This document shows, one piece after another, positions 21,564 through 55,944 of a DNA stretch of 64,000 bases. The notes under the pieces are model-generated. The model was given only the letters and a program-made list of their open reading frames with translations, ran no database searches and had not been told where the DNA came from. A program made the position numbers and the translations under genes. Origin of the DNA: Rhodocyclaceae bacterium (lineage in GTDB: Bacteria; Pseudomonadota; Gammaproteobacteria; Burkholderiales; Rhodocyclaceae); the NCBI GenBank assembly GCA_036504515.1, contig DASXVA010000007.1, positions 100,031 through 164,030 on the forward strand, read 5' to 3'. The first letter of the stretch is position 1. Each line of letters opens with the position of its first letter.

Positions 21564-22205
21564 GTGGACGGCATTACCATTGCGCTCTCCAAGGGCCGAA
21601 TCTTTGAAGAAACCTTGCCACTGTTGGCTGCAGCTGGGATTGTGCCCAGCGAGAACCCGGAGACTTCTCGGAAGTTGATCATTGGAACCAATCGCCCCGA
21701 TGTTCGGGTTGTGATTGTCCGTGCGTCTGATGTGCCGACCTATGTGCAGTATGGGGCTGCTGACTTGGGTATCGCTGGCAAGGACGTGTTGATTGAGCAT
21801 GGCGGAGGAGGGCTCTATCAGCCATTGGATCTGAATATTGCAAAGTGTCGCATGTGTGTGGCTGCCCCCGTAGGGTTTGACTACGCGGCGGCAATTCGTC
21901 CTGGTGCACGGTTGCGTATCGCTACCAAATACATCAGTACCGCTAAAGAGCACTTTGCTGCCAAAGGCGTTCACGTGGACTTGATCAAGCTCTACGGTTC
22001 AATGGAATTGGCTCCCTTGGCCGGGCTCTCTGAGGTCATTGTTGACTTAGTGTCCAGTGGTGCAACTCTCAAGGCAAATCAACTCGTCGAAGTGGAGGAA
22101 ATCATGGATATCTCTTCCCGCCTTGTCGTTAGCCAGGCAGCGCTTAAGGTTAAGCACGATCTGCTGCAGCCTGTGATTGAGGCCTTTGCCGGAGCCATTA
22201 AATGA
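21564..22205 (+). CDS. hisG: ATP phosphoribosyltransferase, short form
   Basis: [31 protein letters not shown] and [12 protein letters not shown] motifs, 213 aa. GTG start. Confidence 0.9.
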
Positions 22206-23509
22206 GTGTGCCTCTGTTTATTCGTCGAATGAGTACTCGGGATCCTGAGTTTCTTTCTGCGTTGGATCAGTTGCTTGCTTTTGACGACAGTACGGACGAG
22301 GCGATTGAAAAGTCGGTCGCTGACATTATTCGCAACGTACGTCGTTTGGGAGATGTTGCTGTACTCGATTACACCCGTCGGTTCGATAATCGAGATGTGG
22401 CTTCCATGATTGCTCTTGAGCTGCCGAAGGACGAACTTGCCGCGGCATTTTTCAGCTTGCCAGAGGCCCAACGGCAAGCATTGCAAACAGCTGCCGAACG
22501 AGTGCGCAGTTACCACGAGCGTCAAAAGGCTGAGTCCTGGGAATACACGGAGGCAGATGGAACCCGCTTGGGTCAGAAAATCACTCCCCTGGATCGCGTC
22601 GGTTTATACGTGCCCGGAGGTAAGGCTTCATATCCATCCTCGGTGCTGATGAATGCACTACCTGCCAAAGTGGCAGGGGTGGGTGAGCTCATTATGGTGA
22701 CGCCGACACCGCGAGGTGAAAAGAACGCACTAGTTCTTGCTGCTGCCCATCTTGCTGGTGTTGATAGAGTATTCACGATTGGCGGAGCACAAGCTGTTGC
22801 TGCCCTTGCTTATGGCACACAAACTATTCCGCAAGTGGACAAGATTGTTGGGCCAGGGAATGCCTACGTAGCTAGTGCAAAGCGCAGGGTATTTGGTGTT
22901 GTTGGTATTGATATGGTGGCCGGCCCTTCTGAAGTACTGATCATTGCCGATGGCAGTACCAATCCTGACTGGATTGCCATGGACCTATTTGCCCAAGCTG
23001 AGCATGACGAGTTGGCTCAGTCAATCATGTTGTGTCCAGATGCCGGCTACATTGAGCAAGTGATAGCCCGCATTGAAAGGCTGTTACCAACTATGCCACG
23101 CAAGGAAACCATTGCCGCCTCGCTTTCTGGACGTGGAGCTTTGATTCACGTCAGCGACTTGGATGAAGCCTGTGCTGTAGCCAACCGAATTGCACCTGAA
23201 CATTTAGAGTTGTCCGTTGAAAACGCAGAGTCCTTGGTGGATAAGGTTCGCCATGCAGGAGCTATTTTTATCGGTCCCTATGCATCGGAGTCGCTGGGTG
23301 ATTATTGTGCAGGGCCTAATCATGTTTTACCAACATCCCGCAGCGCACGGTTCTCGAGCCCCTTGGGCGTCTACGACTTCCAAAAGCGATCTAGTCTGAT
23401 TGATGTTTCTGCTACAGGTGCCCAATCGCTGGGGACTACCGCATCAACTTTGGCTCATGGGGAGGGGCTGACGGCACATGCAAGAGCCGCCGAACTGCGC
23501 ATGGAGTAG
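22202..23509 (+). CDS. hisD: Histidinol dehydrogenase
   Basis: Overlaps the hisG stop. [19 protein letters not shown] and [19 protein letters not shown] motifs. Confidence 0.93.
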
Positions 23510-23555
23510 TTGGATATTTTCACTCTGTTGAATATTAGATTTTTTGCTTTACATC

Positions 23556-23584
23556 TTGGAATTGGAACAATAAGCCGCTATAAT
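23556..23584 (+). promoter_or_regulatory. Candidate sigma70 promoter for tRNA-Phe
   Basis: TTGGAA (23556-23561), a 17 bp spacer, then TATAAT (23579-23584). The -10 ends 13 nt upstream of the mature tRNA 5' end. Confidence 0.5.
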
Positions 23585-23597
23585 CATTCCCTCTTTT

Positions 23598-23673
23598 GGC
23601 TTGGTAGCTCAGTTGGTAGAGCAGCGGATTGAAAATCCGCGTGTCGGTGGTTCGATTCCGCCCCAAGCCACCA
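23598..23673 (+). tRNA. tRNA-Phe (anticodon GAA), CCA encoded
   Basis: Cloverleaf folded by hand: acceptor GGCTTGG/CCAAGCC, D arm GCTC/GAGC, anticodon arm GCGGA-TTGAAAA-TCCGC, T arm GGTGG-TTCGATT-CCGCC, then A-CCA. Confidence 0.95.
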
Positions 23674-23954: not shown

Positions 23955-25163
23955 ATGGAGGCGACCATGGCCAATAAGCCCTATCAGGAAGGGGCGGTCT
24001 GGTCGTTCCGTCTGCGCATCAAAGACCAGTCAATCTATCGCACCGGCTTCGTATCTGCGGATGAGGCGCGCCGTGAAGTTGAACGCTTACGCCAGAAAAT
24101 CCTTGAAGCCGGCAAGCCTAAGCATGCAGGTCCTTGGCGGACGACGCTTGCGCAGGCAATGCAACAGTATGCCCTTGAGCGCTTACCCAGTTTGAAGGGC
24201 GCACGCCAGGAGGCAAATCGCATCAACTGTTACCTGCGCGCCGCCAACCTCGACATCATCAAGATTGCGAAGCCGTTGTCAGAAGCTGCTGTCGTCCCAG
24301 GAATTTACTGGGACGTGAGCCTGGCACCAGGGAAGCAACCACGCAAAATCCCCAACGGTCTCCATGCTCACCGCCGTCGCCAGGAGGACGGCTCCATCGA
24401 AACGCAGCGACTGATCCGCCATTTGGCTAAAACCCCAATGGCCCAGATCATGACTTACCAGGCGCAAGACCTGGTGGACGTCATGCTGCGGGAGGGCTAC
24501 GAGCCGGCGACGATAACTCTGGAGCGAGCGCTACTGCGTCAGATGTTTAACTACGCCCGTAAGACTTGACACTGGGTAGAGCCAGCGCGTAATCCGGCCA
24601 CGCAACTCAAGATGACCACTGTCGACAATGCGAGGGACCGCGTGTTGACGAACAAGGAATGGAGGATGATCAGCAGCGCCATCGAGAAGTCGCTCAATCC
24701 ATACGCAGCGCCGGCAATCGCACTACTGTTGGAAATGGCTATGCGGGTTTCTGAGCCATTGCTGAATGCGGCATGGGCAAATGTCGATTGGAATCGATGC
24801 CTGCTGAGGTTACTTGATGCGAAGGAGGGAGCACGTGACGTCCCGCTCAATCCGGCGGCAATGACCATATTGGCAACACTCAATTTATTGCGTGCGGAAG
24901 GCGATCCGGATCCTCGCATTCTCCCAATCAGCTACGAAGCGTTGAGGGCGGTGTGGAACCGCGTACGCGTAGCTGTCGGTATCGAGGATATTCGCATTCA
25001 CGATCTAGGACACACGGCAGCGACGCGCTTCACGCTTGAGCTCAACGGTAACCTGCCGGTCACTAAAAGTGATCGCCGGACACAAAGTGTATTCTCAGCT
25101 TAGTCGGTTATCAACGTCAAGCCCGAGGATGTGTCGCGCCTGCTTCCATGGTCAGCCCGCTGA
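23955..25163 (+). pseudogene. Tyrosine recombinase (phage/ICE-type integrase), inactivated
   Basis: ORFs 23955-24569 and 24612-25103 share one frame and are split by a single TGA at 24567-24569. Box II reads HDLGHT instead of HDLRHT. The C-terminal integrase-like peptide SLKVIAGHKVYSQLSR is readable only in a shifted frame (about 25060-25107). The original frame resumes with VINVKPEDVSRLL up to the TGA at 25161-25163. Confidence 0.8.
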
Positions 25164-25284: not shown

Positions 25285-25530
25285 CCGGATGAGAATCTGG
25301 TTAGCGAAGAGGGCGAGGATATTCCGGATCCACCTCGTCAACCAGTCTCCCGCTCCGGCGATGTCTGGCAGCTGGGTCCGCACCGCCCGATCTGTGGTGA
25401 CGAGTGCGACCAGAATGCCATTGCCAGCTTGATGGGGGGGGGCGAGCAGGCCAGCCTGTGCTTCACCTCGTCCCCAAAGGAAATCAGCGCGACCACACCT
25501 CCGGTGGCATTGCCGATTGGGATGGCCTGA
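25285..25530 (+). pseudogene. Fragment of a ParB-N/DNA methyltransferase-type gene (N-terminal part of the methylase domain only)
   Basis: The frame reads PDENLVSEEGEDIPDPPRQPVSRSGDVWQLGPHRPICGDECDQNAIASLMGGGEQASLCFTSSPK. It resembles the GD.W.LG.HRL.CGD...DL.FTDPPY entry of N6/N4 methylases but has a degenerate FTSSPK and no remaining domain. It contains a G9 run at 25434-25442. Confidence 0.5.
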
Positions 25531-26198
25531 TCCACCGCGACAATGATCGTGGGGTCAGCAAGGAACGTCTGTCCAGGGCCTTTGGCGTGAACCTGAGCTC
25601 CATCAACCGGCGCATCAACCTGCTGGAAGGCATTTGCCCGGACGCCATTGCTAGACTGCAGGACAAGCAGTCCCCCCTCCCGGATGTCACTCGGGTGTTG
25701 CGCAACATGAAAGCCGCCCGGCAGGTGAAAGTAGTCGAATTGATGATTGCCAGCAACACCATCACTGTGGCCCATACCGATGCCTTACTGAAAGCCACCA
25801 CACCGGAACAGCGAACCGACTTCAAACCTATCGAACGCGACCGGCAACTGGCGCCGATCGAGCAGATGGTCAAACTGGAAAAGGAAATGAGCCAGGTCCA
25901 GCCCCAGTACAAGGACGCTGAAGAGCACTACGGCTCTGATTTACTGAACTTGGTGGTCGCCAAGGGTTACTTGACAAAGCAGCTCGGCAACGATGCCGTC
26001 AAAAGCTACATCACCCGGCACGAACCCGAAATCCTCGAGCATTTCGAATTGGTGGTGAACGTCGTCAGCATGGAGGAGGCTGTGCTGCAGCAACTGGAAG
26101 CCGACGGCGACGACCAACCCACCTCGGAGATCACCCACCCCGATTCCACAATTGACAATGAAACCGCAGCACCAGGAGACAACGCCGCCACCGAATAG
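25531..26198 (+). pseudogene. ParB/RepB-family (PF07506-like) protein lacking the N-terminal ParB nuclease-like domain
   Basis: RGVSKERLSRAFGVNLSSINRRINLLEGICPDAIARLQDKQ...RNMKAARQVKVVELMIASN matches the HTH and C-terminal parts of the family. Family-like sequence begins only about 25530, abutting the methylase fragment. Confidence 0.55.
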
Positions 26199-26231
26199 AA
26201 AGCCTAAACCAAGTGAGCGATGGAAATGTCA

Positions 26232-26261
26232 TTGCCGCGCCGCAATACCGAGGGGTAAAAT
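26232..26261 (+). promoter_or_regulatory. Candidate promoter of the rfaH-like gene
   Basis: TTGCCG, an 18 bp spacer, then TAAAAT. A strong AGGAGG Shine-Dalgarno lies 6 nt before the ATG at 26288. Confidence 0.3.
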
Positions 26262-26287
26262 GCTAAAGATAACATTAGGAGGTAGCG

Positions 26288-26785
26288 ATGCACTGGTATC
26301 TCGTTCATACCAAGCCCAGGCAGGAAAAGTGCACCCTCGACAACCTTGATCGGCAGGGTTATCAGTGCTACCTGCCGACGATCCCCTCCGAAAAGCTCCG
26401 CCAAGGACTGCTAACCGTTGCGGATGAGCCGCTGTTTCCACGTTACTTGTTCATCCGCCTGGGGCGGGGCGACTCAGCCAAGAGCTGGGCGCCGATCCGC
26501 TCGACCAAGGGAGTCAGCCGTCCGGTCAGCTTTGGGGTCGAACCCGCGCGGGTCGATGATGCTCTGATCGAACTGTTGCGAACACAAGAGGCATCGGTAC
26601 AGATCGAACCGGAGCGACTGTTCAAGACTGGGGAGCGTGTGCGAATGACCGAAGCACCGTTTGCTGGCTTCGAAGGCATCTACCAAATGGGCGATGGCGA
26701 GCGTCGGGTCATGGTGCTGATCGAGATTCTGAGCAAGCCTGTTGCGGTGCGCGTGGCACCGGCCAGTTTGCGCAAGGCAAGTTGA
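26288..26785 (+). CDS. rfaH: RfaH-type NusG paralog (operon-specific transcription antiterminator)
   Basis: A 165 aa protein collinear with E. coli RfaH: HWYLVHTKPRQE, EPLFPRYLFI, TKGVS..V.FG, and the KOW region GERVRMTEAPFAGFEGIY. Confidence 0.88.
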   Translation: MHWYLVHTKPRQEKCTLDNLDRQGYQCYLPTIPSEKLRQGLLTVADEPLFPRYLFIRLGRGDSAKSWAPIRSTKGVSRPVSFGVEPARVDDALIELLRTQEASVQIEPERLFKTGERVRMTEAPFAGFEGIYQMGDGERRVMVLIEILSKPVAVRVAPASLRKAS

Positions 26786-26957
26786 GACGCCTACTCTGGT
26801 TATTTCCTGCTTGGCAAAAAACCTTTCTCAAAGTCATGACGGTGTGGGACAATCGTGTTCATCCGTCGAACTTTGGGCAGTTTCTTTTGCTGCACTTTAT
26901 TGCTCCGGACCCCTTGCTAGAACCGGCTGACCGCGCTTGCTGATCGTGAAACAGCAT

Positions 26958-26969
26958 GGCGGTAGCTTG
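26958..26969 (+). promoter_or_regulatory. ops (operon polarity suppressor)/JUMPStart-like element
   Basis: GGCGGTAGCTTG on the sense strand of the downstream operon. The canonical ops is GGCGGTAGnnTG. It lies 173 bp after the rfaH stop and about 430 bp before the first glycan gene. Confidence 0.7.
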
Positions 26970-27156
26970 CCTAGATTGCTTTGAGTCTCGTATCCCCACT
27001 ACAGAAATTGGCTGGTTTCCAGGAGGAAATCCAGTTCGAAGTCCTGCGGTGTATGCATCAGCGGCCCAGTCAGTCAGCGTACTTTGACAATGGAATTGGG
27101 TGTCGATCTGGGCAGCATCAACTTCTGTCTCCAAGCCTTGGCGGAAAAGGCTACAG

Positions 27157-27389
27157 GAACCCCCTAGCAGCGACAAACTCATTGTAGCCGTGGATTCGCG
27201 CCACTTCCCGTCCATCTGGGTTGAGCCCTGCTGGGCGACTCATCCAAGGCCAGGGGCAAGTTGGGCTGGACGCCAAAGACCACCTTCGACGAACTCGTTG
27301 CCGAAATGGTGCGAGAAGACCTCAAATCCGCCGAGCGTGATGAGCTTATCAAGCTGAACGGCTACAAGGCAATGAATTACCATGAATAG
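27157..27389 (+). pseudogene. gmd: 3' remnant of GDP-mannose 4,6-dehydratase (gmd), frameshifted
   Basis: The frame ending at TAG 27387-27389 reads LGDSSKARGKLGWTPKTTFDELVAEMVREDLKSAERDELIKLNGYKAMNYHE, a typical Gmd C-terminus. The preceding IVAVDSRHF-PS-VE segment is in another frame. No N-terminal part of the gene is present. Confidence 0.75.
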
Positions 27390-27398
27390 AGATTCAGC

Positions 27399-28196
27399 GT
27401 GATGCGTTTGTTTTTTGATGAGCGATTCATCCAGGGTTTTAACCCTGCGACCCGATCCGTGCCTCTTTTGTATTTTTTGTATCTATCTGCAGTACCTTTA
27501 GCCAAGGTATTGATTGTTTGCCGGATAAAACCGAATTCAATCACTACACTGTCTAATTTGACTGCCATAGCGGGGCTAGTCTTTTTGGTTCTGGGGTCTT
27601 CAGCGTGGCTTTTCCCGATGATGTGGATGTTGGCTTTGTTTCTAGATATAGCGGATGGAATTGTTGCCCGAGTAACTGGTCAAGCGTCCGCTCAAGGCAG
27701 TTTTTATGACCATATGTCAGATCAGGTCAAGGTCATTGCCCTCTTCCTTTGTGTGGCACTGCGCTATGACGAGCATGCGGTTTGGATAGTTGCGTTTGCC
27801 GCAAACGGGCTATTCATGTTTTATGGTGTGGTAAATCAGTTCTACTATGCCCGCACGCTCTTGCTTAGTAGGGCTGCCCCTGCGGCTGTTCAGCAATCGG
27901 TGGGGAGTCGGCAGGCCAGTGAAATTTCAAACCAAACAACTGAACGTGGCTTAATCAAGTCTTTTTTTGACAGACATCCATTTGCCAAGAAGTGCGTGCT
28001 TGGAGTCTATGCCAGCCTGTTTGTGATGTATGGAAATTGTATGATTTTGTTGCTGCCAGTCAGCATAGGTTGGGAGTGGGCTATGGCTAGCATGTTACTG
28101 TTTGGCTTGGTGACCTTTCGTTCACTCGTTGAGGTCGTGCGAAATACGATTAAGGTCAACAAGCAGATTGCCCAAGCCAAGATTTCATGGAGATGA
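27399..28196 (+). CDS. CDP-alcohol phosphatidyltransferase family membrane protein
   Basis: Complete family signature D(x2)DG(x2)AR(x8)G(x3)D(x3)D in LDIADGIVARVTGQASAQGSFYDHMSD. Multi-TM protein with visibly lower GC than the downstream genes. Confidence 0.8.
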   Translation: MMRLFFDERFIQGFNPATRSVPLLYFLYLSAVPLAKVLIVCRIKPNSITTLSNLTAIAGLVFLVLGSSAWLFPMMWMLALFLDIADGIVARVTGQASAQGSFYDHMSDQVKVIALFLCVALRYDEHAVWIVAFAANGLFMFYGVVNQFYYARTLLLSRAAPAAVQQSVGSRQASEISNQTTERGLIKSFFDRHPFAKKCVLGVYASLFVMYGNCMILLLPVSIGWEWAMASMLLFGLVTFRSLVEVVRNTIKVNKQIAQAKISWR

Positions 28197-34769: not shown

Positions 34770-36571
34770 AATCTCAATTCCTCGTCTCGGCATGCCGGGA
34801 GGCATTGCCCGCAGGGGTGAAAAACATCTATGTGGCTGATCCGTTCATCTACCATGTTCTGAGCCGCGAAGGCCGGCTTTCGGAATTTTCCTCGGTAGAA
34901 GTCGGGCCGGTATATGACCCCTCGAGGGATAATTTACAGAGTGACCACGACGATGTGGACGGGCGCCATACCCGTTACCTCGCCCTTCTGATACCCCGGA
35001 TCAACCAGGTGCTGGGGTGTCAGCATGGCGAGCTGTTTTGGAAGCAGTTGCTGTCCGTTCCCCTGGTGAAGCATATTGGCATGTGCTACGCGATGTTCTG
35101 GCAGTGCGAGCGGCAGTTCGACGCGCGCCGTCACAGCGTGTTGGCGATGCGCCAAGATGCGTTCAGGGTCCCGCTGACATTCGACGAGCACCGGCATTAC
35201 CTGCAGCATACCGAGATGGGCCAGGAACAGTTGTTCGCCGTCTATTGCGAATTGTTTTTGGACGGGCCGGTGGAACGCTTTGGGACCTGTGCCCCAGCTC
35301 CCGCAGATGGCGCGACTGCGACATCCGATGGGACGGGTACCCCTCGGCGCAGCCTGGGCGAGCGCCTGCATCCGAAGCGGTTGCTGCGCAAACTGCTGCG
35401 GCAACGCCATCCACGGCTTGGCGTGCTGAATTCTTATTTTTCCGCCGCCTACATGGACCATCTGCTATGGCGGAGTCTGGGGCGTATCCAGCCGCTGAGT
35501 CTGCCTGCGTTGTCGTCCGACCGCCCTGCGCCGGATCTGAAGGCGCGGGCGTACCTAACCGAATGGGAAGACGATTTCGACCGGTTTGACCAGTTCTGCA
35601 TGCGCTGCCTTTACCACCTGTGGCCTGTGTCTATGCTGGAGGGCTTCGGGCCGCGCCTGATGACGATGCAACAATTTTTCCAGAAACAGCAGGGCTTGCG
35701 TTGGGTGGTCAGCGAAGCCTGGCCGGCTGATGACGCCACCAGCTTGGCACTGGCGGTGCTGCGCGAGTCTGGTGTGCGGCAGATGTATAACGAGCACAAT
35801 TATCTTGCCGTGCCATTTGTTGGCAACCACCTGAAGTACATCGCCGCGATCACGGATGAGTTTTTGACGCTGGGTTGGAATGACAGCGATCTTCCGAACC
35901 TAGTCCCTGCTGCGTCACTGTTTCCCTGGTATAGCCAGGAAGCCCGCCCGGTACCCGACATCAACTTGTTGCTGGTGGGCGGCTTACCACAGGCGCGCTG
36001 TCCCGAGATAGGGTCATCATGGGGGGACGCTGGTGCTCGGGGCGCGCGGCAATACCTAAATGCCACTAAAGGCCTGTTGGAAGCCTTAGGAGCAGATCTG
36101 CGGGCGAAAACGTATTTCCGCGCTTATCCGCGCTATGCCTCGCGCAACTGGGCGGTCTGGGATCAGCGCTACGAGTTTGGTGACGTGCTGCAATCGTTGG
36201 CGCAATACGACGATGACAGCGTGGTCAGCGCTTCCCAGTTGATGCGTCGAGCCCGGCTAGTCATCGTCAACTATCTCAGCACGGCGCATCTTGAGTCGCT
36301 GTTGGCGAATATTCCAACGGTGCTGCTATGGAACGCGTCGACGAACTGTTTCAGCCGGAAATATGAAGATATCTTCGACGGGCTCAGGGACGCTGGTATC
36401 TGCCATACCGATCCGGCTGCCGCCGGCGCGTTCATCCGCAGTATCGCCGAAGACCCGGAGGCTTGGTGGGGGAGCGCAAATACCCAGGCAGCCAAGACAG
36501 ACTTCCTGCAGCGCTTCTTTGGCCATCAGTCCACAATGTTGGCGCATCTGATTACACGAGCGAAACAATGA
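34766..36571 (+). CDS. Large soluble protein of unknown family, candidate phosphoramidate/phospho-group transferase
   Basis: The ATG at 34766 overlaps the upstream TGA (ATGA). 601 aa with no TM segments or classic GT motifs seen by eye. Size and position are comparable to Cj1421/Cj1422. Confidence 0.6.
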   Translation: MKSQFLVSACREALPAGVKNIYVADPFIYHVLSREGRLSEFSSVEVGPVYDPSRDNLQSDHDDVDGRHTRYLALLIPRINQVLGCQHGELFWKQLLSVPLVKHIGMCYAMFWQCERQFDARRHSVLAMRQDAFRVPLTFDEHRHYLQHTEMGQEQLFAVYCELFLDGPVERFGTCAPAPADGATATSDGTGTPRRSLGERLHPKRLLRKLLRQRHPRLGVLNSYFSAAYMDHLLWRSLGRIQPLSLPALSSDRPAPDLKARAYLTEWEDDFDRFDQFCMRCLYHLWPVSMLEGFGPRLMTMQQFFQKQQGLRWVVSEAWPADDATSLALAVLRESGVRQMYNEHNYLAVPFVGNHLKYIAAITDEFLTLGWNDSDLPNLVPAASLFPWYSQEARPVPDINLLLVGGLPQARCPEIGSSWGDAGARGARQYLNATKGLLEALGADLRAKTYFRAYPRYASRNWAVWDQRYEFGDVLQSLAQYDDDSVVSASQLMRRARLVIVNYLSTAHLESLLANIPTVLLWNASTNCFSRKYEDIFDGLRDAGICHTDPAAAGAFIRSIAEDPEAWWGSANTQAAKTDFLQRFFGHQSTMLAHLITRAKQ

Positions 36572-36669
36572 CGAAGACACTGGCAAACAGTGCTCAATAG
36601 CGTTGGCAACTATCTGGCTAGCGCCAGCAGCCGGCCTTTGCAACAACAAAATTTACCAATGTAAGGCAT

Positions 36670-37665
36670 ATGACAGTACTAATTACCGGGGCAGACGGAT
36701 TCATTGGCTCCCATCTGGTCGAGCACATGTTACGTCGTGGCCAGCGTGTCCGAGCCTTCGTTCTATACAACTCATTCAACTCCTGGGGTTGGTTGGATGA
36801 CTGTCCGACCGAATACCGCAAGAACTTGGAAATTTTCAGCGGTGACATCCGTGACCCGTACGGCGTCAAGGAATCGATGAAGGGCTGCGACGCGGTTCTC
36901 CATCTAGCGTCGCTGATTGCTATTCCGTATTCATATCATTCGCCGGACACCTACGTCGATACCAACGTCAAGGGGACCCTGAACGTCCTCCAGGCGGCGC
37001 GAGAGCTTGGCCTGGCGCGGGTGATCCATACCTCGACCAGCGAGGTGTACGGAACCGCCCGGTTCGTGCCAATAACCGAAGAGCATCCACTGCTTGGCCA
37101 GTCGCCGTATTCGGCGACTAAGATCGCGGCTGACCAACTGGCATATTCGTTCTATGCCTCATTCAACCTGCCGGTGATGATCGTACGCCCGTTCAATACC
37201 TACGGGCCCCGCCAGTCGGCGCGTGCGGTGATTCCCACCATCATCAGCCAGATTGCCAGCGGCAAGCGCGAGATTTATCTCGGCGCGGTGTCGCCGACGC
37301 GCGACTTTAACTTCGTCTCCGATACCGTCGCCGGATTCGCCGCGGCGCTGGATGCGCCGCAGGTCGTCGGCGAAGTTGTCAACGTGGGGAGCAATTTCGA
37401 GATCTCGATCGCTGACACGGTACGCATGATCGCGGATATCATGAATGCGGATATCACTATCGTCACCGACGAGCAGCGCCTGCGCCCAGGGAAGAGCGAG
37501 GTCGAGAGGCTGTGGGCGGACAACCGCAAGGCGCGCGAACTGCTCCGTTGGCAGCCTGAACATGGAGGGCTCGATGGCCTGCGCCGCGGCCTCGAGAAAA
37601 CCGTGGCCTGGTTCCTCGATCCGACCAACCTGGCGCGCTACAAGTCCGACATATACAACATCTGA
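36670..37665 (+). CDS. NAD-dependent NDP-sugar 4,6-dehydratase (LegB-like)
   Basis: [14 protein letters not shown] Rossmann motif, [11 protein letters not shown], catalytic YSATK, 331 aa. Confidence 0.82.
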
Positions 37666-46981: not shown

Positions 46982-47066
46982 CGAAGGAGCGCTTTACAAC
47001 CCTTCACGCTAGCGTTTGGGAACGATTGTCAGGGATGTCCGTGCTCCAGCTCCAGGCGAATTCAAA

Positions 47067-48872
47067 ATGATGCTTTTGCGCAAACTTGGATTTGTCGTTG
47101 GCCGTAAACACCGGTCGGCCTATCTGAGGCTGCTGCTGCTGTTGCTGGCTGGCGCCCTGTTCGAGGCCTTGGGTGTGGGTGGAGTGCTACCCTTCTTGGC
47201 TGCGCTTTCCGATGCCGAAAAAATCCTGGCGAACCCGCACGTTGTGCGCTTGCTGGACTTGCTCGAGCTGTCGCGCACCACGGACGTCCTGGTGCAGTTG
47301 ACTGGCCTTGCAATGGTCGGCCTGATGGTCATGAAGGGGCTGGTTGCATTCTGGGCGAGCCGCAGCCAGGTTGCGCTCTTGTTCAAAGAACGCGCCCGGA
47401 TCACGCAGCAGCTGTTCGGCCACTACATGCTCATTCCTTATTCGCAGCACTTGAACAAGAACATGGCTGAAGTGATCCACTTGGCCACGGGCGTCTCGAC
47501 AACCTTTACCACGGTATACATGGCCGCGCTGCTGACAATCGTTACCGAAACAATGGTCAGTCTGGCGCTACTTGCCATGCTCATGCTGATCAATGCCTGG
47601 GCGGTATTCGTAGTCGGCGTGCTTACGGTGCTGGTGGGATGGACCTACATGGCGCTGACCAGGGCCCGTTCGCGTCGGCTGGGGGAGCAGCAGCACCGGG
47701 TCGTGATCGCGACCAACAAGTGCCTGATCGAGGGATTGAGCGCCCTCAAGGAAGTACGTGTCTACGGTGCCGCGTCGCATTTCCTGTCCAGGCTTGAAAA
47801 ACTGAACCACGCCTACACTGCGGTAAGCACGAGCACCACGATCTTTAACCAGATGCCCAGACTGATAACTGAAACCGCATTTATGGTGGCAGTGATCGGC
47901 TCGGTGATGTACCTCAGCTACGTTGGGTTCGACCTGAAGCAGGTGATCCCACTGTTGGTAGTGTTTGGCATGGCGTTCATGCGCATAATGCCATCGTTCA
48001 ATCGGATACTGACTGCGTTCACAGTTATGCGTCTCAACGAGTCAGCACTGGACATGCTTTACAGGGAGTTGACCGAAACCGATTACGACACGTCTCCGGA
48101 CGCGCTGATTGCTCGACCGGAGAGGGCAGCATCGTTTGATCGGGCTATTGAACTCAATGACCTGAACTACACCTATCCTGGTGCCCCCGCGCCATCCCTT
48201 GCCGGCATCACTTTGTCTATACGCAAGGGGCAGACGATCGCCCTAGTCGGGAAATCAGGCTCGGGAAAGACCACGCTAATCGACATCCTGTTGGGCCTAC
48301 TGAGGCCGAGTTGCGGCGAGTTGACTATCGATGGGCATGAGGTGATGGATTTGTCCGGGTTGCAAGGTGTAGTCGGCTATATCCCGCAAAGCATCTACCT
48401 GACGGATGACACGCTGCGGCGCAACGTGGCATTTGGTGTGGATGACGACGCTATCGACGAGGAGGCCATCCGTCGTGCCGTTCATGCGGCCCAACTGGAT
48501 GCGTATGTCGATACGTTGCCGGAGGGTCTGGACTCGACAGTCGGTGATCGAGGAGTGAGATTGTCGGGTGGGCAGCGGCAGCGTGTTGGGATCGCCAGGG
48601 CGCTATATCGAGATCCAGCGATCTTGGTGCTGGACGAGGCGACCAGTGCGCTGGATGTGGAAACTGAGGTCGCTGTGACCGATGCAATCCGCGAACTGGG
48701 CAAGCACAAGACCTTGATTGTGGTCGCGCATCGGCTTTCGACTGTGCGGGACTGCGAAGTGTTGTACTTGCTTGAAGAGGGGAAGATCGTGGCCCAAGGC
48801 AGTTATGACGAGCTTGTTCGTCAGAATAAATGGTTTAGCAAAATCTCTGAACTTAATTCCGCCTCTCATTGA
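47067..48872 (+). CDS. Fused TMD-NBD ABC exporter (MsbA-like half transporter)
   Basis: Six-TM N-terminal half, Walker A GKSGSGKTT, signature LSGGQRQR, Walker B LVLDEATSALD. Confidence 0.85.
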   Translation: MMLLRKLGFVVGRKHRSAYLRLLLLLLAGALFEALGVGGVLPFLAALSDAEKILANPHVVRLLDLLELSRTTDVLVQLTGLAMVGLMVMKGLVAFWASRSQVALLFKERARITQQLFGHYMLIPYSQHLNKNMAEVIHLATGVSTTFTTVYMAALLTIVTETMVSLALLAMLMLINAWAVFVVGVLTVLVGWTYMALTRARSRRLGEQQHRVVIATNKCLIEGLSALKEVRVYGAASHFLSRLEKLNHAYTAVSTSTTIFNQMPRLITETAFMVAVIGSVMYLSYVGFDLKQVIPLLVVFGMAFMRIMPSFNRILTAFTVMRLNESALDMLYRELTETDYDTSPDALIARPERAASFDRAIELNDLNYTYPGAPAPSLAGITLSIRKGQTIALVGKSGSGKTTLIDILLGLLRPSCGELTIDGHEVMDLSGLQGVVGYIPQSIYLTDDTLRRNVAFGVDDDAIDEEAIRRAVHAAQLDAYVDTLPEGLDSTVGDRGVRLSGGQRQRVGIARALYRDPAILVLDEATSALDVETEVAVTDAIRELGKHKTLIVVAHRLSTVRDCEVLYLLEEGKIVAQGSYDELVRQNKWFSKISELNSASH

Positions 48873-48892
48873 GACAGCACTTTTTATCTACC

Positions 48893-49897
48893 ATGACAGT
48901 TCTGATTTCGATTTGCATACCAACATATAACGGCGAGAAGGTATTGCCTGAGACGTTGGACAGTATCTTGGGGCAGATTCTGGACGGGATGGAAGTGATC
49001 CTATGCGATGATGGTTCATCCGACAGAACCCTGGAGATTGCGCAGCGCTATGAGGCAAGCCATCACCAAGTAAAAGTATTTCAGAACCCTTGCAACCTAG
49101 GTATGGACCGGAATTTTGCTCAGTCTGTACAGCACAGCACTGGTAAGTATGTCTGGTTCTCAGGGCAAGATGATATCTTCGAACCCGGTGCGGTTGCCAA
49201 GGTATTCCAGGTACTGAATCAGCGTCCGGATTTGGGAATGATCTATCTGAATTACCGGTTCTTGAGTGGGGATTTGTCACGTACCGTGGCTCCGCCGCTA
49301 CTCGATATGTCTGCCGACCAAGTATTCCACGGCGCAGCTGAGTATTTCAAAGCCATCGACCATGCGCCCAGTTTCCTACCTGCTACCGTCATGCGTAGGA
49401 ATTTCTGGGATAAAGTGCCGATCGATCAGTTCTTCGGAACGCACTATGTGCAAGTCGCGGTCTGGCTGTATAACGCTCGCGATTCTGAAATCTATGTGAT
49501 CGCAAGTCCAGACTTCATTTCCTGCAGAATGCCGGAAGAGTCCTGGAAATTCACTGGTGGGAAGATGTTGTTCGAAATCTTCACCGGGAAATTTTTTGTC
49601 TATAAAACAATACACTTACTCGGCGACGACTATGTTCCGGCACGAATTTCTAACTGGTTTGAAAATGACTATTTCCATCGATATTTTAGGAAGTTGGTAG
49701 TACTCAAGTCCATGGGGCTGGAGGTTACGTCCGAACATCGGCGTCGGGTACGTGCAGTTGCGCATGGTCCGTTCCATTTCTACTGTTGCTTGTTGCCGGC
49801 GCTGCTAGTGCCAAACTGGCTCGCGAGTGCGATCATGCGTGTGCATTCATGGATTCGGCGCCGTGACCCTGGTGCAACTCAACCTTTAGTGTATTAA
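48893..49897 (+). CDS. Family 2 glycosyltransferase
   Basis: ISICIPTYNGEKVLPETLDSILGQ and CDDGSSD (DxD-type) motifs. Confidence 0.82.
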   Translation: MTVLISICIPTYNGEKVLPETLDSILGQILDGMEVILCDDGSSDRTLEIAQRYEASHHQVKVFQNPCNLGMDRNFAQSVQHSTGKYVWFSGQDDIFEPGAVAKVFQVLNQRPDLGMIYLNYRFLSGDLSRTVAPPLLDMSADQVFHGAAEYFKAIDHAPSFLPATVMRRNFWDKVPIDQFFGTHYVQVAVWLYNARDSEIYVIASPDFISCRMPEESWKFTGGKMLFEIFTGKFFVYKTIHLLGDDYVPARISNWFENDYFHRYFRKLVVLKSMGLEVTSEHRRRVRAVAHGPFHFYCCLLPALLVPNWLASAIMRVHSWIRRRDPGATQPLVY

Positions 49898-49909
49898 ACC
49901 GTTTTATTC

Positions 49910-50689
49910 ATGAGACTAAAAGACATTGCTCGTACGGTAACGCCGCCGCTTATATGGAACGGACTGCGCCGCTTTCGGCAGCGCGATAGAGGATGGTTTG
50001 GCGATTATCCGGATTGGGCGCATGCGCTTGAGCACGAAGAGGGTTACGCGACCGACGAGATTCTTGAGCGCATGAAAGATGTGCATCTTAGGTTGCAATC
50101 TGGTGAACTGTCGGAAAAACCGGACCCCAACCTACTCGGCTATCTCCTGTTGGCCACAACAATTCTGAAACCGATGCGGGTGATGGATTTCGGTGGCAGT
50201 CTAGGGCGGCAGTATTTCAGAGTGCGAAATCTGCTGGACCTCGGCTGCCACTACACATGGGGCATCGTTGAGCAGGATAACTTTGTGCAGTATGGTAATC
50301 AGTTTTTCGCCAATGAACAGTTGCGGTTTTACGGGGATGCAGCCACTTGCATGGCAGCCGAGTTGCCGAACGTCCTGCTGGCATCAAACGCTCTGCAGTA
50401 CTTCAGCGATCCGTATGCCCAGCTTGATATCCTTTTGGGAGGGGGCATCGACTACGTGATCGTACATGACCTGCCGGTGAGCCTGACAGGGAAAGAGCGC
50501 ATCACTATTCAAAGGGTGGACCCAAATATCTACAAGGCAACATTGGCGTGCCGACTGTTTTCTGAGGCCAACTTACTTACGTACTTTACCGAACGTGGCT
50601 TTCGTCTGTTGCATTCCTACCGGACTGCAATGCATGACGTATGCGATTTTCGCGGCTATGTATTCAAACGTCGGTGCGATGCGGTCTAG
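49910..50689 (+). CDS. Putative methyltransferase (LIC12133/TIGR04325-like)
   Basis: WFGDYPDWAHALEHEEGYATDEILERM N-terminus, VMDFGGSLG SAM-binding-like motif and SNALQY. The family call is from memory of the pattern only. Confidence 0.6.
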   Translation: MRLKDIARTVTPPLIWNGLRRFRQRDRGWFGDYPDWAHALEHEEGYATDEILERMKDVHLRLQSGELSEKPDPNLLGYLLLATTILKPMRVMDFGGSLGRQYFRVRNLLDLGCHYTWGIVEQDNFVQYGNQFFANEQLRFYGDAATCMAAELPNVLLASNALQYFSDPYAQLDILLGGGIDYVIVHDLPVSLTGKERITIQRVDPNIYKATLACRLFSEANLLTYFTERGFRLLHSYRTAMHDVCDFRGYVFKRRCDAV

Positions 50690-50690
50690 T

Positions 50691-51710
50691 ATGGATCTGC
50701 GGCCATCGGCCCATTGGCTCGGAGGAATCAAGAATTGCTGCAGACGGTATGCCTTCGTGCGTCTAGGGTGGGAGGTCATTCGGGTTCCGTATCGCATCGT
50801 AGCCTTGCATCTTCATTTGGCTCGGGCGGTGGCTTCTGGGTCAGTCAAGGCAGCCACAGGTAAGGTCGAAATTTGCAGAGACCAAGCACTGGCAAGCGAT
50901 GTAGGGGGCGATGCGCATCCCATGCGTTTTCCGCTGTTTACCTTGGCCAGAACACCTGATCAAAGAAAGCAGGTCTTTCGCGCGACATATCGCGGTTCAG
51001 AGGCCTGTTATTCCGTGAATTTTATACGCCACGCCACCAACATTACCTTTGTAAATAGTTATGCGGAAATCCCTTCACCTGTGTTTCTTTGTATTGTGCA
51101 GGCAGTCTTGCGACGATTAATCTGGACCTCATCAATTCGGTCTCAGAGAAACATCACAAGTTATGCTTCATTCATGCGTACTGATGCCATGGATGAGTAT
51201 GTCGCGGAACTGACCTGCGGTGCGGAAGCCTACCGCGCCAGCCTAGGGAAGAAAACACGCTTCAACACTAGGTATTATTGGGACCGGCTGCAGGCGGACT
51301 TTCCCGGTATCACAGCGTTACCTTTTGACAGGGGGGAGTTGGCACATGGTGACTTTGCTCACTTCGTGTCCCTGGTGGAAAAGCGGTATCCCGGTGGATA
51401 CTGGAGCGGATTCCTACCGGAACCGGTCTTCACTCTATTTCGGGAGAATGTGGTCGGGCTGATTGTGAGAAACCAGGGGAAGCCGATCGCATTTAACATC
51501 TTCTATCGTCATGCGGATGATCTTATATTCACCGGCAATGTTTTTGATGACAGCTATGACAAGTACAGTCTGGGGTTTGTCACTACGTACATGTCGATTA
51601 TCCAGGCCGCTAAACAAGGAATTGCCAAAGTTATTCTTGGGGGGGGGGATTTTGGTTACAAATCAAGACTCTCAACTGCCAGTCGGCCGGTTAGCGAGTC
51701 CTTCATGTAG
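50691..51710 (+). CDS. GNAT/FemAB-like acyltransferase (Acetyltransf_6/CelD-like)
   Basis: The C-terminal half resembles CelD/BioF2-like GNATs (GKPIAFNIFYRH...YDKYSLGFV). Start chosen just after the upstream stop. It contains a G10 tract at 51639-51648. Confidence 0.55.
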   Translation: MDLRPSAHWLGGIKNCCRRYAFVRLGWEVIRVPYRIVALHLHLARAVASGSVKAATGKVEICRDQALASDVGGDAHPMRFPLFTLARTPDQRKQVFRATYRGSEACYSVNFIRHATNITFVNSYAEIPSPVFLCIVQAVLRRLIWTSSIRSQRNITSYASFMRTDAMDEYVAELTCGAEAYRASLGKKTRFNTRYYWDRLQADFPGITALPFDRGELAHGDFAHFVSLVEKRYPGGYWSGFLPEPVFTLFRENVVGLIVRNQGKPIAFNIFYRHADDLIFTGNVFDDSYDKYSLGFVTTYMSIIQAAKQGIAKVILGGGDFGYKSRLSTASRPVSESFM

Positions 51711-51744
51711 TCGCGGATCGCTGAAGCTGGAACAGTTGAAGTAA

Positions 51745-53103
51745 ATGACGATTGTTGTACAGATCCCTGGCGGTGGGTGGCAGGCAGAAAAACGCTATGT
51801 CGCGGAATGCGTGTTGCGGAATTTTCTAGGCATTAAGGACTTTAGCCTGTGCGTGGGTGAGCCCGACGAATGGGTGCTGTTTGATAGTTCTATTGGTGAT
51901 ACAGCGCTTCGCCTTCGCCTGCCAAATTTATTCTTCCCTGAGGAGAAGCCGGCGATATATCTGACACAGTTGCACTTAGACGCATGGGGTGTGAGGAGCC
52001 AAACGTTGCCGGCGGTCATGATCGGCATCCAAGGATACCCGGCCGATGATATTCCATTGGTCTTTGTTAGGCAGGAATGCCGCAATGTTTCAGACATTGA
52101 TCTATTCGGCACAATATTTTTTTATCTAACTCGCTACGAGGAATACGTATTAGGTTCCGGTGATGAATTAGACCGCTTCGTGTCCCACCAGTCGGTTGTG
52201 AGAGCATTCCATGCTCGACCGGTCGCAGATGAGTATGTCTGGCTGATCCGATATCTGTTAGAGCGGAAATTGCCGGGGATACTGCTGGCACAACCAGAAT
52301 ACTCTCTAGAAGTGAGCCATGATGTCGATATTCCACATTCCTGGGTAGGAGCTAATGCTGGAACTTTGGTTCGCACGGTAGCCCGCCGGCTGCTAAAGGA
52401 GGCTTCGCTGCGCGGAGCAGTGCGATCGCTCCGGTCATATTGGAATACCAGTCATGATCCGGCATACTGTTTTGACTGGATGATGGATAAAACCGAGGCT
52501 CTAGGACTGCAGGCGACTTATTACTTCTTGGTCGGTGGGACGCATCCCCTTGACGTCAACTATGAAATTTCGGCAAAGCCGATCGCGACTTTGCTGGATT
52601 CCGTGGCAACCCGTGGGCATGCGATAGGGCTACATGGCAGCATAGAAAGTGCCTATGACGAGTCTTTAATGCGAACAGAAGTGCAAGCGTTGGAGGCAGC
52701 GACTGGATATTTGGTGCATAAAGTGCGGCAACACTACCTGCGGTTTTCCGTACCTACCACATGGCGCATCATTGAGGCTGCTGGATTGACCGATGATGCC
52801 ACCTTAGGATTTGCGGACCGAGCGGGATTCCGGTGCGGTTCAGCACGGCGCTTCCCGGTGTTCGACGTTTGCACAGCAGCATCAATTCCTGTTTTCGAGA
52901 CCCCGTTGATCTGTATGGAGCACTCGCTTCTTGACCCTGCTTACCAGGGCCTCGCACCTGACCAAGCCTATGAGTACTCAACGCGACTGGTGGATCAGGT
53001 CAAGGCCTACGGCGGGAATTTTTCACTGCTCTGGCACAACCACAACTTGGTGACAGAGGTGCAACGGGATCTATTCCAGCAGATACTTAAATATGCGTCT
53101 TAA
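51745..53103 (+). CDS. Two-domain protein with C-terminal polysaccharide deacetylase-like (CE4) fold
   Basis: 452 aa. SHDVDIPH and HGS... segments are consistent with a NodB-like metal site. The N-terminal domain is of unknown function. Confidence 0.55.
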   Translation: MTIVVQIPGGGWQAEKRYVAECVLRNFLGIKDFSLCVGEPDEWVLFDSSIGDTALRLRLPNLFFPEEKPAIYLTQLHLDAWGVRSQTLPAVMIGIQGYPADDIPLVFVRQECRNVSDIDLFGTIFFYLTRYEEYVLGSGDELDRFVSHQSVVRAFHARPVADEYVWLIRYLLERKLPGILLAQPEYSLEVSHDVDIPHSWVGANAGTLVRTVARRLLKEASLRGAVRSLRSYWNTSHDPAYCFDWMMDKTEALGLQATYYFLVGGTHPLDVNYEISAKPIATLLDSVATRGHAIGLHGSIESAYDESLMRTEVQALEAATGYLVHKVRQHYLRFSVPTTWRIIEAAGLTDDATLGFADRAGFRCGSARRFPVFDVCTAASIPVFETPLICMEHSLLDPAYQGLAPDQAYEYSTRLVDQVKAYGGNFSLLWHNHNLVTEVQRDLFQQILKYAS

Positions 53104-53114
53104 AGGAACTAACT

Positions 53115-54197
53115 ATGAGTGAGGCCCTAGGTTTTGCATTGGTCGGGTGTGGGCGGATCGCAAAAAAACATGCAGATATTCTGGCCGAAGGCTTGGTTAA
53201 TTGCGCCAGGCTTGCCGCGGTCTGCGATTGCAGGGAAGATCGAGCCAAGAGCTTTGGGGAGAAATACGGGGTGCCGTGGTTCCTCGATATGCATGAAATG
53301 ATGAAATCACTGCAAGTCCAAATTGATGTAGTGAGCATTCTTACCGAAAGCGGCAACCATGCGAAGCACACGATTGCTCTAGCACCTTACGGGAAGCATT
53401 TAGTGGTCGAGAAGCCGATGGCTCTGACTTTGGATGATGCAGATTCAATGATTAAAGCCTGCGACGATTCAGGGGTAAAACTCTTTGTCGTAAAGCAAAA
53501 CCGTTACAACCTGCCTATACAAAAGGTGCGGGAAGCGGTAGAGGCTGAGCGTTTCGGTAAGATGGTCATGGGTACAGTGCGGGTGCGTTGGTGCAGACCT
53601 CAAGAATACTATGACCAAGACGCCTGGCGCGGTACCTGGGCCATGGATGGCGGTGTTTTCACAAACCAAGCGAGCCATCATGTAGATATGTTGGAATGGA
53701 TGCTAGGTGATCCGGTATCGGTGTTTGCCAAATCAACCACTGCCCTTGTCGACATTGAAGCCGAGGACACAGGGGTTGCGGTGATCACTTTCCGTAATGG
53801 CGCATTGGGAATTGTTGAGGCCACTACAGCCGTCCGACCAAAGGATCTGGAGGGCTCACTTTCTCTTATAGGCGAAAAAGGAACAATCGAGGTAGGAGGT
53901 TTTGCGTTAAATCAGATGAAGACATGGAACTTCGTCGATGCGGCGGAGGGCGATGGCGAAGTGCTGGAAAAATATCGTCAGAATCCGCCCAATGTCTACG
54001 GGTTCGGCCATGTGGCCTATTTGGCCCATGTGGTGGACGTTATCTGCAACGGTAAGCGCTGCCTGATTGACGGCTTGGAGGGACGCAAATCACTGGAATT
54101 GATCTCCGCTATATACGAGTCGATTGAGACTGGACAGGAGGTATTTCTCCGCTTCAAGTCCAAGAAATCGCGCCTAGGCAAGAAAGCTGTGCAGTGA
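53115..54197 (+). CDS. Gfo/Idh/MocA-family NDP-sugar oxidoreductase (WbpB-like 3-dehydrogenase)
   Basis: [13 protein letters not shown] Rossmann N-terminus and VEKPMAL motif, 360 aa. Followed by an acetyltransferase and an aminotransferase. Confidence 0.78.
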
Positions 54198-54832
54198 AGA
54201 GCGTTCAGATCGCTTCCACGTCAGTTGTGCGGGATGGGGTGCGCTTCAAAGGCAATGCTTTGGTTGAGGATTTCTGCATCATCGGCGCCCCATCTGCAAA
54301 TGCTGGTGCAAATTTCTCCGAGACAATAATCGGCGACGATGTAGTCATTCGATCGCACGTGGTGATCTACGCAGGTAATCATATTGGAAACCAGGTCCAT
54401 ATCGGCAACAAAGCCAATATTCGGGAATCGAATCAAATCGGTGATCGCGTCAGCATTGGTACTCTGAGTGTGGTGGAACACCATGTGGTCATCGAGGATG
54501 ACGTGCGTATCCATAGTCAGGTTTTCGTGCCGGAATACTCAGTACTAAAAAATGGAGCATGGTTGGGGCCCAATGTAGTCCTGACCAATGCAAAATACCC
54601 TAAGTCACCCGGTACCAAAGCCGGCCTTCGCGGTGTGGTGATTGAGGAAGGTGCAAAGATCGGCGCTAATGCCACAATCTTGCCGGGGGTGGTGATCGGC
54701 CGCAACGCTCTGGTCGGGGCCGGCGCGGTGGTTACCCAAAATGTGCCTCCGAATGCCGTGGTAGCTGGCAATCCGGCCCGCGTCATCAACCAAATCGAAA
54801 ATCTCCCCTATCCCGCGGATAACCAAACATGA
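54194..54832 (+). CDS. Left-handed beta-helix (hexapeptide) N-acetyltransferase (WbpD-like)
   Basis: Repeated [LIV]-G-x4 hexapeptides ([31 protein letters not shown]...). Confidence 0.8.
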
Positions 54833-55938
54833 CACCAAACACTATTCCGCTCGTGAATCTGAAAGCTCAGCATCGCAAACTCAGATCACGCCTGCTCTCG
54901 ACGATTGAGGATGTCATAGACAGCAGCGACTTTATCCAGGGGCGATACGCAGAAATGTTCGAGCGCAGTTTCGCGAGCTTGCTGGGTACCCCTCATGTTG
55001 TTGGATGCAGTAGCGGAACATCAGCTCTTTCTTTGGCACTGGAATGTTCCGGTGTTGGTGAGGGTGCTGAAGTTATTACGGTAAGCAATACCTTCTTTGC
55101 CACTGCTGAAGCGATCTGCAACGTTGGTGCTACCCCGGTCTTTGTTGATGTCCACCCGGGCACCTACACCATGGATCTGGACGCGATGGAAGCCGCAATC
55201 ACTCAGCGAACGCGAGCAATTATCCCGGTGCACCTGTTTGGCGTTCCCTGCGACATGCCGGCCATTATGGAAATCGCAGTCCGTCATGGACTGATAGTAA
55301 TCGAAGATTGCGCCCAGGCACACCTTGCCTCTTATAAGGGAAAGTGTGTCGGTACCTTCGGTAATTTCGGGGGGTTTAGTTTCTTCCCGGGCAAAAACCT
55401 TGGTGCGCTTGGAGATGCCGGCTGCATCACGGTGCAGCGCGATGAAGATGATCTTGTGCTACGCAAACTGCGCAACCATGGCCGCATTGGAAAATACGAA
55501 CATGATATGGTGGCCTACAACCACCGCATCGACGGACTACAGGCGGCGGTGCTGTCGGTCAAGCTCGAGTTTTTGGAGGAGTGGACTGCACGTCGTATTG
55601 CTAACTCGGGGTTGTACGACCGAGCACTGGATTGCCTCGGGGTCAAGCGCATCCAGCCACCATCCGCGGGCCGCACTGTTTACCATCTGTATGTCATCGA
55701 AGTGGACGACCGTGACCGTCTACTACAGGCATTCCAGGGGCAGAACATACAGGTTGGCGTTCATTACCCACTGCCTTTGCACTTGCAACCAGCTCTTAAG
55801 TCATTCGGGAAGGGCGCTGGTAGTCTACCGGTGACCGAGCGGGCAGCGCAACGGATGGTTAGCCTGCCCATGTGCCCGGAGTTGACTCAAGAGGAAATTG
55901 AGCGGGTGGTAGACGTGGTTCGGCAGTTTGTTTCCTGA
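54829..55938 (+). CDS. DegT/DnrJ/EryC1/StrS-family PLP aminotransferase (WbpE-like)
   Basis: ATGA overlap with the upstream gene. [23 protein letters not shown] and [10 protein letters not shown] (PLP lysine) motifs. Confidence 0.85.
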
Positions 55939-55944
55939 AAATCG

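Follow-up and report, generated by a model that had tools for sequence, protein, structure and literature searches.

The locus described here raises the question whether a long surface-glycan gene cluster can carry, at its own head, both the factor and the loading site that would let transcription run to its end. It is part of a stretch of 64,000 nucleotides (hereafter the window; positions 100,031 to 164,030 of the forward strand of contig DASXVA010000007.1, GenBank assembly GCA_036504515.1) from a member of the Rhodocyclaceae. From the letters of this stretch alone, an earlier reading (the original prediction) had proposed an island-encoded paralog of the transcription factor RfaH, with its own ops (operon polarity suppressor) element, heading a co-directional operon of more than 36 kb. 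The present analysis takes it to be a surface-glycan locus acquired by horizontal transfer and headed by a cis-linked RfaH/ops anti-termination module, a reading to which we assign a probability of about 0.8. It is carried above all by the conservation of ops, of its distance from rfaH and of its flanking sequence in related loci, and by an intact RfaH-type gene. The parts concerned are the following:

26288-26785, + strand: rfaH (island copy), 165 aa, ATG start, intact
26825-26853, + strand: predicted glycan-operon promoter, with -35 TTCTCA, a 17-nt spacer and the extended -10 TG-n-GACAAT
26877-26893, + strand: small leader hairpin GCAG...CTGC, flagged by a scan for terminator-like structures
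26930-26957, + strand: JUMPstart-like block ACCGCGCTTGCTGATCGTGAAACAGCAT, second only to ops as the most conserved non-coding block
26958-26969, + strand: ops, GGCGGTAGCTTG, an exact match to the consensus GGCGGTAGnnTG
27399-64000, + strand: co-directional glycan cluster of 35 open reading frames (ORFs; 27399-63811), identified by Pfam assignments

The ops element, its leader and the gene before it

As predicted, ops lies on the same strand downstream of rfaH, 172 nt separating the stop codon from the first ops base. By itself the 12-mer is not significant, since an exact match to the consensus is expected by chance 0.10 times per window and the genome shows no enrichment: six exact copies were counted against 13 for the reversed control pattern, and the remaining five all fall within ORFs. 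These same counts would favour a chance match without any role, an explanation that is effectively refuted by comparison with other genomes and by a profile search, and to which next to no weight can be given. For this comparison 80 related loci were retrieved, nearly all labelled Betaproteobacteria and with RfaH proteins 58–93% identical to that of the window; 78 of them contained enough downstream sequence. The consensus was found on the same strand, 73–333 nt (median 169) past the rfaH stop, in 40 of the 78, with the exact E. coli element GGCGGTAGCGTG in 31 of these 40, and a variant with the core GCGGTAG occurred in 14 further loci; position, strand and a 30-nt flank are kept in 40 to 54 of the 78. 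Elsewhere in the related loci the consensus was matched five times in 1.54 Mb, a background of 0.0015 per 450 nt. Across 52 aligned relatives GCGGTAGC is invariant, and a profile of hairpin plus ops detected one single site in the 98%-complete genome, namely the one at 26958-26969 (E 1.3e-15). In a sample from the bacterium's own family, rfaH followed by ops was encountered in six of ten RfaH loci, including three with homologues only 40–48% identical. A role of ops is accepted here because position, strand and flanks are conserved across related loci. As further ops targets for a second rfaH of the genome (see below), two intergenic candidates with one mismatch (C9:56700 and C1:555592) were considered; they lack the upstream block and were rejected, and the profile gave no second site.

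Between rfaH and ops, the alignment revealed a promoter block, TCAAAGTCATGnnGnTGTGGCAnAAT, that is kept in nearly all ops-bearing relatives. In the window its -35 element occupies 26825-26830, the TG dinucleotide 26845-26846 and the -10 hexamer GACAAT 26848-26853, the last T of which is invariant in the alignment (A1). Transcription would start at about 26860, placing ops some 100 nt into the transcript, and with a conserved promoter about 100 nt upstream the element most likely belongs to the transcribed leader, as had been assumed in the original prediction. Just past the predicted start, the small hairpin at 26877-26893 recurs at the equivalent place in relatives and is followed by a weak, T-rich and unconserved tract; it could serve as a 5' stabiliser or as a weak attenuator.

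The 28 nt directly before ops (consensus ACCGCGCTTGCYGATCGTGAAACGGCAY) contain a second hairpin with a 5-bp stem (26938-26942/26952-26956), a 9-nt loop and a 1-nt spacer (T26957). In 52 sequences 92% of the stem cells are paired, as opposed to 29–66% when the partner was slid, and stem pair 28-41 varies between UG (26), CG (14) and UA (10); covariation is modest, as there is little variation in most of the element. The designation as a JUMPstart element, also part of the original prediction, could be retained for the architecture and had to be given up for the family. As drawn by Rfam in the JUMPstart RNA family RF01707, the E. coli JUMPstart likewise has a 5-bp stem and one unpaired base before the 12-nt ops (13 unpaired positions, GGGCGGUAGCGUG); however, with a covariance-model score of at least 35 bits as the criterion, no match was obtained at E<=1 in window positions 26000-27600, nor in the related loci L016 and L037. 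This negative is real, since the galF-rfbB element of E. coli, run alongside as a control, reached 60 bits, a match by which the suspicion that the Rfam library lacked JUMPstart was ruled out as well. On these grounds the betaproteobacterial element is considered to work like JUMPstart without being a member of RF01707.

The rfaH gene itself is preceded by AGGAGG, a strong Shine-Dalgarno sequence. Its product passed the cut-offs of both RfaH equivalog models of NCBIfam (158.9 bits on TIGR01955, cut-off 144.5; 127.2 bits on NF006534, cut-off 124) and stayed well below those for NusG (53.9 of 135.7 bits), UpxY (72.7 of 100) and LoaP (33 of 125). Among solved structures in the PDB the closest is E. 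coli RfaH (E 2e-24; NusG E 2e-10), with an alignment over residues 2-164; the NGN domain (PF02357) covers residues 1-97, and an AlphaFold2 model (predicted local distance difference test score 85) displays this domain together with a C-terminal KOW barrel of four to five strands. By these comparisons the protein is a member of the RfaH family and not a general NusG, which upholds the proposed identity of the ORF; the grouping with NusG that would have spoken against it was looked for and did not appear. In E. coli RfaH the side chains contacting ops are K10, H20, R23 and R73 (PMC5995543), and E48, I93 and F130 are tied to the autoinhibited, refolding alpha-helical C-terminal domain (PMC7593976, cited here and below from parts of its text). 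The alignment shows that the island protein keeps the equivalents of K10, R23, Q24, E48 and I93, with Tyr in place of F130.

The glycan cluster and a probable deletion at its start

Within the window all genes from 27399 onwards are on the + strand, in agreement with the original prediction; gaps between the 35 ORFs do not exceed 98 nt (a gap of this length lies at 36571-36670) and many ORFs overlap. The products comprise a CDP-alcohol transferase, a PEP-utilising enzyme, an APS kinase and methyltransferases; a NeuB-type nonulosonic-acid route with a 2-epimerase, a CBS-nucleotidyltransferase, a HisF/HisH-like pair and a cytidylyltransferase; and an ABC transporter, glycosyltransferases, aminotransferases and an acyltransferase. 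Past the window the + strand glycan genes continue on contig C7 up to C7:176892 with FkbM methyltransferases and a carbamoyltransferase, and close with an initiating transferase of the Bac_transf family and a dehydratase of the Polysacc_synt_2 family, so that the cluster, announced as longer than 36 kb, extends over about 49.5 kb. The only large gap in it, 1.1 kb at C7:168730-169835, holds a small - strand ORF and is likely to be an operon boundary or an internal promoter region. Terminator-like hairpins are no more frequent in the cluster than in shuffled sequences and none stands in an intergenic gap, which bears out the earlier impression that obvious internal terminators are absent. Near 48 kb the G+C content falls from about 0.59 to about 0.52 (window 47000-64000), and this step suggests a mosaic cluster whose modules differ in origin. 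The cluster is inferred to be a single, RfaH-dependent operon.

According to the mechanism proposed for this locus, rfaH (26288-26785) would be expressed as a unit of its own, and the glycan transcript would be started by the extended -10 promoter (26825-26853), about 40 nt past the rfaH stop. Roughly 100 nt into the leader, the polymerase would transcribe the 5-bp hairpin and then ops, where it would pause, probably aided by the hairpin, which ends 12 nt before U11; 12 nt is the usual distance between a pause-stabilising hairpin and the pause. The paused complex would expose the non-template ops strand (as a hairpin), to which RfaH would bind, replacing NusG and staying on the polymerase. Rho would be excluded, and the modified polymerase would resist Rho-dependent polarity, first over the 430 nt taken up by pseudogene debris and then over the closely packed + strand genes behind it, 36 to 50 kb in length. 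This scheme is modelled on E. coli RfaH (PMC5995543; PMC7593976, in part), and pausing at ops, loading of RfaH, RfaH-dependent distal expression and one transcript are what the sequence leads us to expect.

The pseudogene debris can be understood by comparison with locus L016, a Burkholderiaceae chromosome, in which a serine recombinase, two ParB/RepB-like genes, rfaH and ops are followed by a 120-aa winged-helix gene, manC, an fcl-like gene, gmd and an ABC transporter. This is likely the ancestral gene order. In the window two remnants of it were found after ops:

26981-27152, + strand: pseudogene of a small winged-helix (MarR-like) regulator, detected by tblastn with the 120-aa L016 protein
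27189-27389, + strand: 3' stub of gmd (GDP-mannose 4,6-dehydratase), corresponding to L016 Gmd residues 344-399 with 49% identity

The regulator, which in its intact L016 form carries HTH_24/MarR domains, is represented by residues 1-44 in one frame and 31-58 in another with the remainder missing, i.e., the gene has suffered a frameshift and breaks off at about codon 58; the gmd stub ends with a TAG stop at 27387-27389. A broken regulator and a gmd stub after ops argue for a deletion, by which about 3.4 kb seem to have been lost and the leader joined to the present first gene at 27399. Despite this deletion rfaH, promoter, hairpin and ops are intact.

The same remnants could be taken to mean that the head is a relic of a deleted GDP-mannose/fucose-type operon (winged-helix regulator, manC, fcl, gmd), that the glycan cluster uses other promoters and that the island rfaH is being lost. 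The frameshifted, truncated regulator and the 56-codon gmd stub directly after ops would fit, as would the truncated ParB-like gene and the decayed integrase upstream of rfaH, the failure to find an attR repeat and the mosaic composition of the cluster. On the other hand, rfaH is full length, its Shine-Dalgarno sequence is strong and it shares 93% identity with relatives, no conserved position has been lost from the -10, the hairpin or ops, no terminator-like structure was detected between ops and 27399, and the deletion, in joining the leader to the next + strand genes, added no barrier. Moreover, the crossing of 430 nt of poorly translated RNA is a task suited to an RfaH-modified polymerase. 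That the head is such a relic is considered unlikely, and the cis-linked module is preferred.

Two paralogs, one ops site and the known systems

Another possibility concerns the factor rather than the site. A second rfaH, for which a search of the genome had been suggested, was found at C7:187200-187697 on the - strand (L001:1489-1983), between prmC and grxD and about 3.3 kb past the right border of the island. It shares 66% identity with the island copy, scores 171.4 bits on TIGR01955 and has no ops nearby. As it is absent from a same-genus genome, the idea that it represents a housekeeping rfaH was dropped; among the 80 related loci no orthologue linked to prmC/grxD was found. It might be this second copy that does the work, in trans as E. 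coli RfaH does, with the island copy redundant or competing at the single ops. Such a view can draw on its higher score on the RfaH model (171.4 versus 158.3 bits), on the lack of an ops of its own nearby, on the presence of just one hairpin/ops site in the genome and on contact residues equal in both copies, except for Gln at position 23 in the second. Dozens of genomes nevertheless conserve the linkage of the cis-linked copy to ops, whereas the second copy is missing from the congener and lacks close relatives with similar surroundings; there is no sign that either copy is inactive. We regard it as quite improbable that the second copy does the work at ops. Housekeeping nusG and rplK (L11 motif) were not found in the assembly; with tuf at the very end of contig C1 (about 958247) and rplK missing, tuf-secE-nusG-rplK probably falls into an assembly gap.

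Several points have to be set against the cis-linked module. Two of the four side chains that contact ops in E. coli are changed in the island protein, H20 to Asn and R73 to Lys, and this is shared by its relatives, of which 76 of 79 clade members possess Asn at the H20 position and 66 of 79 Lys or Arg at R73; the ops DNA stays unchanged despite these replacements. The AlphaFold2 model shows the C-terminal domain as a beta-barrel without the autoinhibited alpha-hairpin, so that fold switching of the island protein gains no support from a prediction that cannot decide the matter. Taken as a whole, the leader shows no advantage in folding over shuffled sequences (z = -0.11), comparative support being limited to the short hairpin before ops. 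With two rfaH genes in the genome, either paralog could act at ops. Of the two genes found after ops in relatives neither is whole here, and together with the decayed ParB-like gene and integrase this means that the module could also be decaying. Finally, the compositional step at about 48 kb and the 1.1-kb gap leave room for internal promoters.

The best studied counterpart is the RfaH of E. coli and other enterobacteria with its rfb, waa, kps, hly and tra operons. By curated model the island protein belongs to the same family, the 12-nt ops consensus is the same (most relatives having exactly GGCGGTAGCGTG), the 5-bp hairpin, the loop of roughly 9 nt and the 1-nt spacer before ops are shared with the E. 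coli JUMPstart, and the target is likewise a long, horizontally acquired surface-polysaccharide operon. Differences lie in the upstream half of the element, which diverges in sequence and fails RF01707, in the Asn and Lys at H20 and R73, and in the presence of two rfaH genes in the genome. The original prediction had set a regulator in cis at the head of the locus apart from the enterobacterial condition; the arrangement is real but not unusual, RfaH being commonly found in this state in Betaproteobacteria.

Outside enterobacteria, RfaH-like genes often adjoin envelope or polysaccharide genes according to parts of the study by Wang et al. (2020, mBio, PMC7593976), in which clusters CL2-CL8 are distinguished and CL4 is associated with an HTH regulator. 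This association fits the winged-helix gene that follows ops in the relatives studied here. The same parts describe rfaH as extensively duplicated and horizontally transferred; they report no ops sites for CL2-CL8 and name E. coli RfaH as the only one whose recruitment is understood. Mobile-element paralogs encoded beside the long operon that they activate are also found in PrfaH of IncX plasmids, recruited at an ops-like site in its own leader as experimentally shown (PMC11880322), and in ActX/TraB on R6K and F (PMC6391919). The target of PrfaH and ActX is a conjugation system, here it is a glycan cluster; in addition, the ops-like site of IncX plasmids lies upstream of prfaH, which is co-transcribed with virB, whereas ops here lies downstream of rfaH and behind a separate promoter. 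Bacteroides UpxY, Myxococcus TaA and Bacillus LoaP are NusG-family paralogs in or beside the polysaccharide or polyketide operon that they activate, and their recruitment signals are, as far as the cited parts of PMC7593976 go, either not ops or not known. UpxY and LoaP are subfamilies different from the island protein, as the bit scores given above indicate.

A literature search found no description of the betaproteobacterial layout of rfaH, promoter and hairpin/ops, which does not prove its absence. The layout is real and conserved across Betaproteobacteria, yet it is a familiar kind of control device. In Betaproteobacteria, factor and loading site are normally inherited together, heading variable surface-glycan loci, which is relevant to the expression of glycan loci after horizontal transfer and to the sequence of steps by which RfaH evolved, a subject of PMC7593976 (in the parts cited). 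With one ops site and two paralogs, the present genome offers a clean, testable case of RfaH/ops outside enterobacteria, in which ops-contact residues differ from those of E. coli while the DNA signal stays identical. Locally, the points of interest are the two paralogs for one ops, the deletion scar after ops and the mobile head cassette. For the genome itself the gain is mainly one of annotation, i.e., a promoter, a leader and a regulator for the glycan cluster, together with a scar that dates the replacement of a cassette.

Spread of the head cassette and borders of the island

In the RfaH tree the window protein falls into a well-supported clade of 11 members with short branches, labelled Azonexaceae, Burkholderiaceae, Oxalobacteraceae and Hydrogenophilaceae. 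It is 88–93% identical to copies labelled as several families (93% to L009 and L010), and a short-branched clade across several family labels indicates horizontal transfer. Within the bacterium's own family RfaH is patchy, with a match in 11 of 81 genomes and none in the one same-genus genome. The genes behind ops vary between loci and the head cassette stays; judged from these sequences, the conserved, moving part consists of the ParB-like gene, rfaH, promoter and hairpin/ops, often with the winged-helix regulator, and the glycan genes are its variable sequel. The suggestion that regulator and glycan operon travel together as one mobile unit can be followed for the head cassette, which does move, and not for the glycan genes behind it, which differ.

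From this a wider reading may be tentatively drawn, possible in our view though less than evenly probable as a whole, in which rfaH, promoter and hairpin/ops (often with the ParB-like gene before and the winged-helix gene after) form a portable expression head. This unit may move between betaproteobacterial families and come to lie at the 5' border of unrelated glycan loci; it may act on any genes arriving behind it as a built-in driver against silencing; and it may be a conserved recombination anchor for gene swapping, of which the deletion scar would be a footprint. If this were so, the homologues of 40–48% identity, which keep ops in cis despite replaced H20 and R73, would imply that recognition of ops arose in a cis-acting RfaH, and the trans-acting arrangement of enterobacteria would be derived.

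Some of the related loci deserve a note of their own. Cultured strains that share this head include Nitrosomonas europaea ATCC 25978 (L037), Azonexus sp. IMCC34839 (L027) and Propionivibrio dicarboxylicus DSM 5885 (L040). One contig of a metagenome-assembled genome (MAG), JAIXUS010000045.1, harbours two cassettes of ParB-like gene and rfaH about 138 kb apart: L009, with an RfaH 93% identical to that of the window and an exact ops, and L015, with 90% identity and only a degenerate GCGGTAG core in another position. Contigs labelled Bacteroidetes, Nitrospira, Bifidobacterium and Geobacter (L009/L015, L019/L032, L048 and L083) encode RfaH proteins 59–93% identical to that of the window; such non-betaproteobacterial labels are probably errors of MAG binning or labelling and not a sign of transfer across phyla.

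Upstream of rfaH, the left part of the island comprises:

23598-23673, + strand: tRNA-Phe (GAA), left border of the island (ARAGORN)
23955-25103, + strand: decayed integrase and mobile-element remnants, partial Phage_integrase match
25404-26198, + strand: truncated ParB/RepB-like gene, conserved upstream partner of rfaH (PF07506 RepB, E 5.8e-23)

Of the homologue in L016, which is intact, 376 aa long and also equipped with a ParB N-terminal domain, the ParB-like ORF retains only residues 147-376, and a gene 67–89% identical occupies the equivalent position in 15 of the 80 related loci. Among the remnants before it, ORF 24612-25103 matches Phage_integrase only in part (E 2.4e-9), and no significant family was obtained for ORF 23955-24569. 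In the same-genus genome G036 tRNA-Phe is directly followed by hemA-prfA-prmC, whereas here tRNA-Phe and hemA are about 60 kb apart (hemA side C7:183.9 kb). By this comparison the island covers roughly C7:123.7-183.9 kb, i.e., about 60 kb that are absent from the congener, and rfaH is island-encoded, as the original prediction had it. Insertion at tRNA-Phe, absence from the congener and integrase remnants are traits of a tRNA-linked island; an attR-type repeat of the 3' end of tRNA-Phe was searched for downstream and not found, and without a flanking direct repeat the island appears to be old or rearranged.

At the other end, between the glycan cluster and hemA and still inside the stretch missing from the congener, an AddAB-like pair is encoded on the - strand (C7:177411-183796; L106:211-6596), consisting of a UvrD-type helicase (1168 aa) and a PD-(D/E)XK nuclease (960 aa). 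On the left side the his operon is divided: tRNA-Phe comes after hisD in the window (22202-23673), while in the congener locus L102 hisD is followed by genes that in the present genome are found on contig C11:85.7-92.6 kb (hisC/hisB/hisH region); a rearrangement joined murA-hisG-hisD to tRNA-Phe. In L016 the cassette is preceded, at L016:2249-5905, by a large serine recombinase and the two ParB/RepB-like genes in tandem, a pair that may be part of the mobile element carrying the rfaH head.

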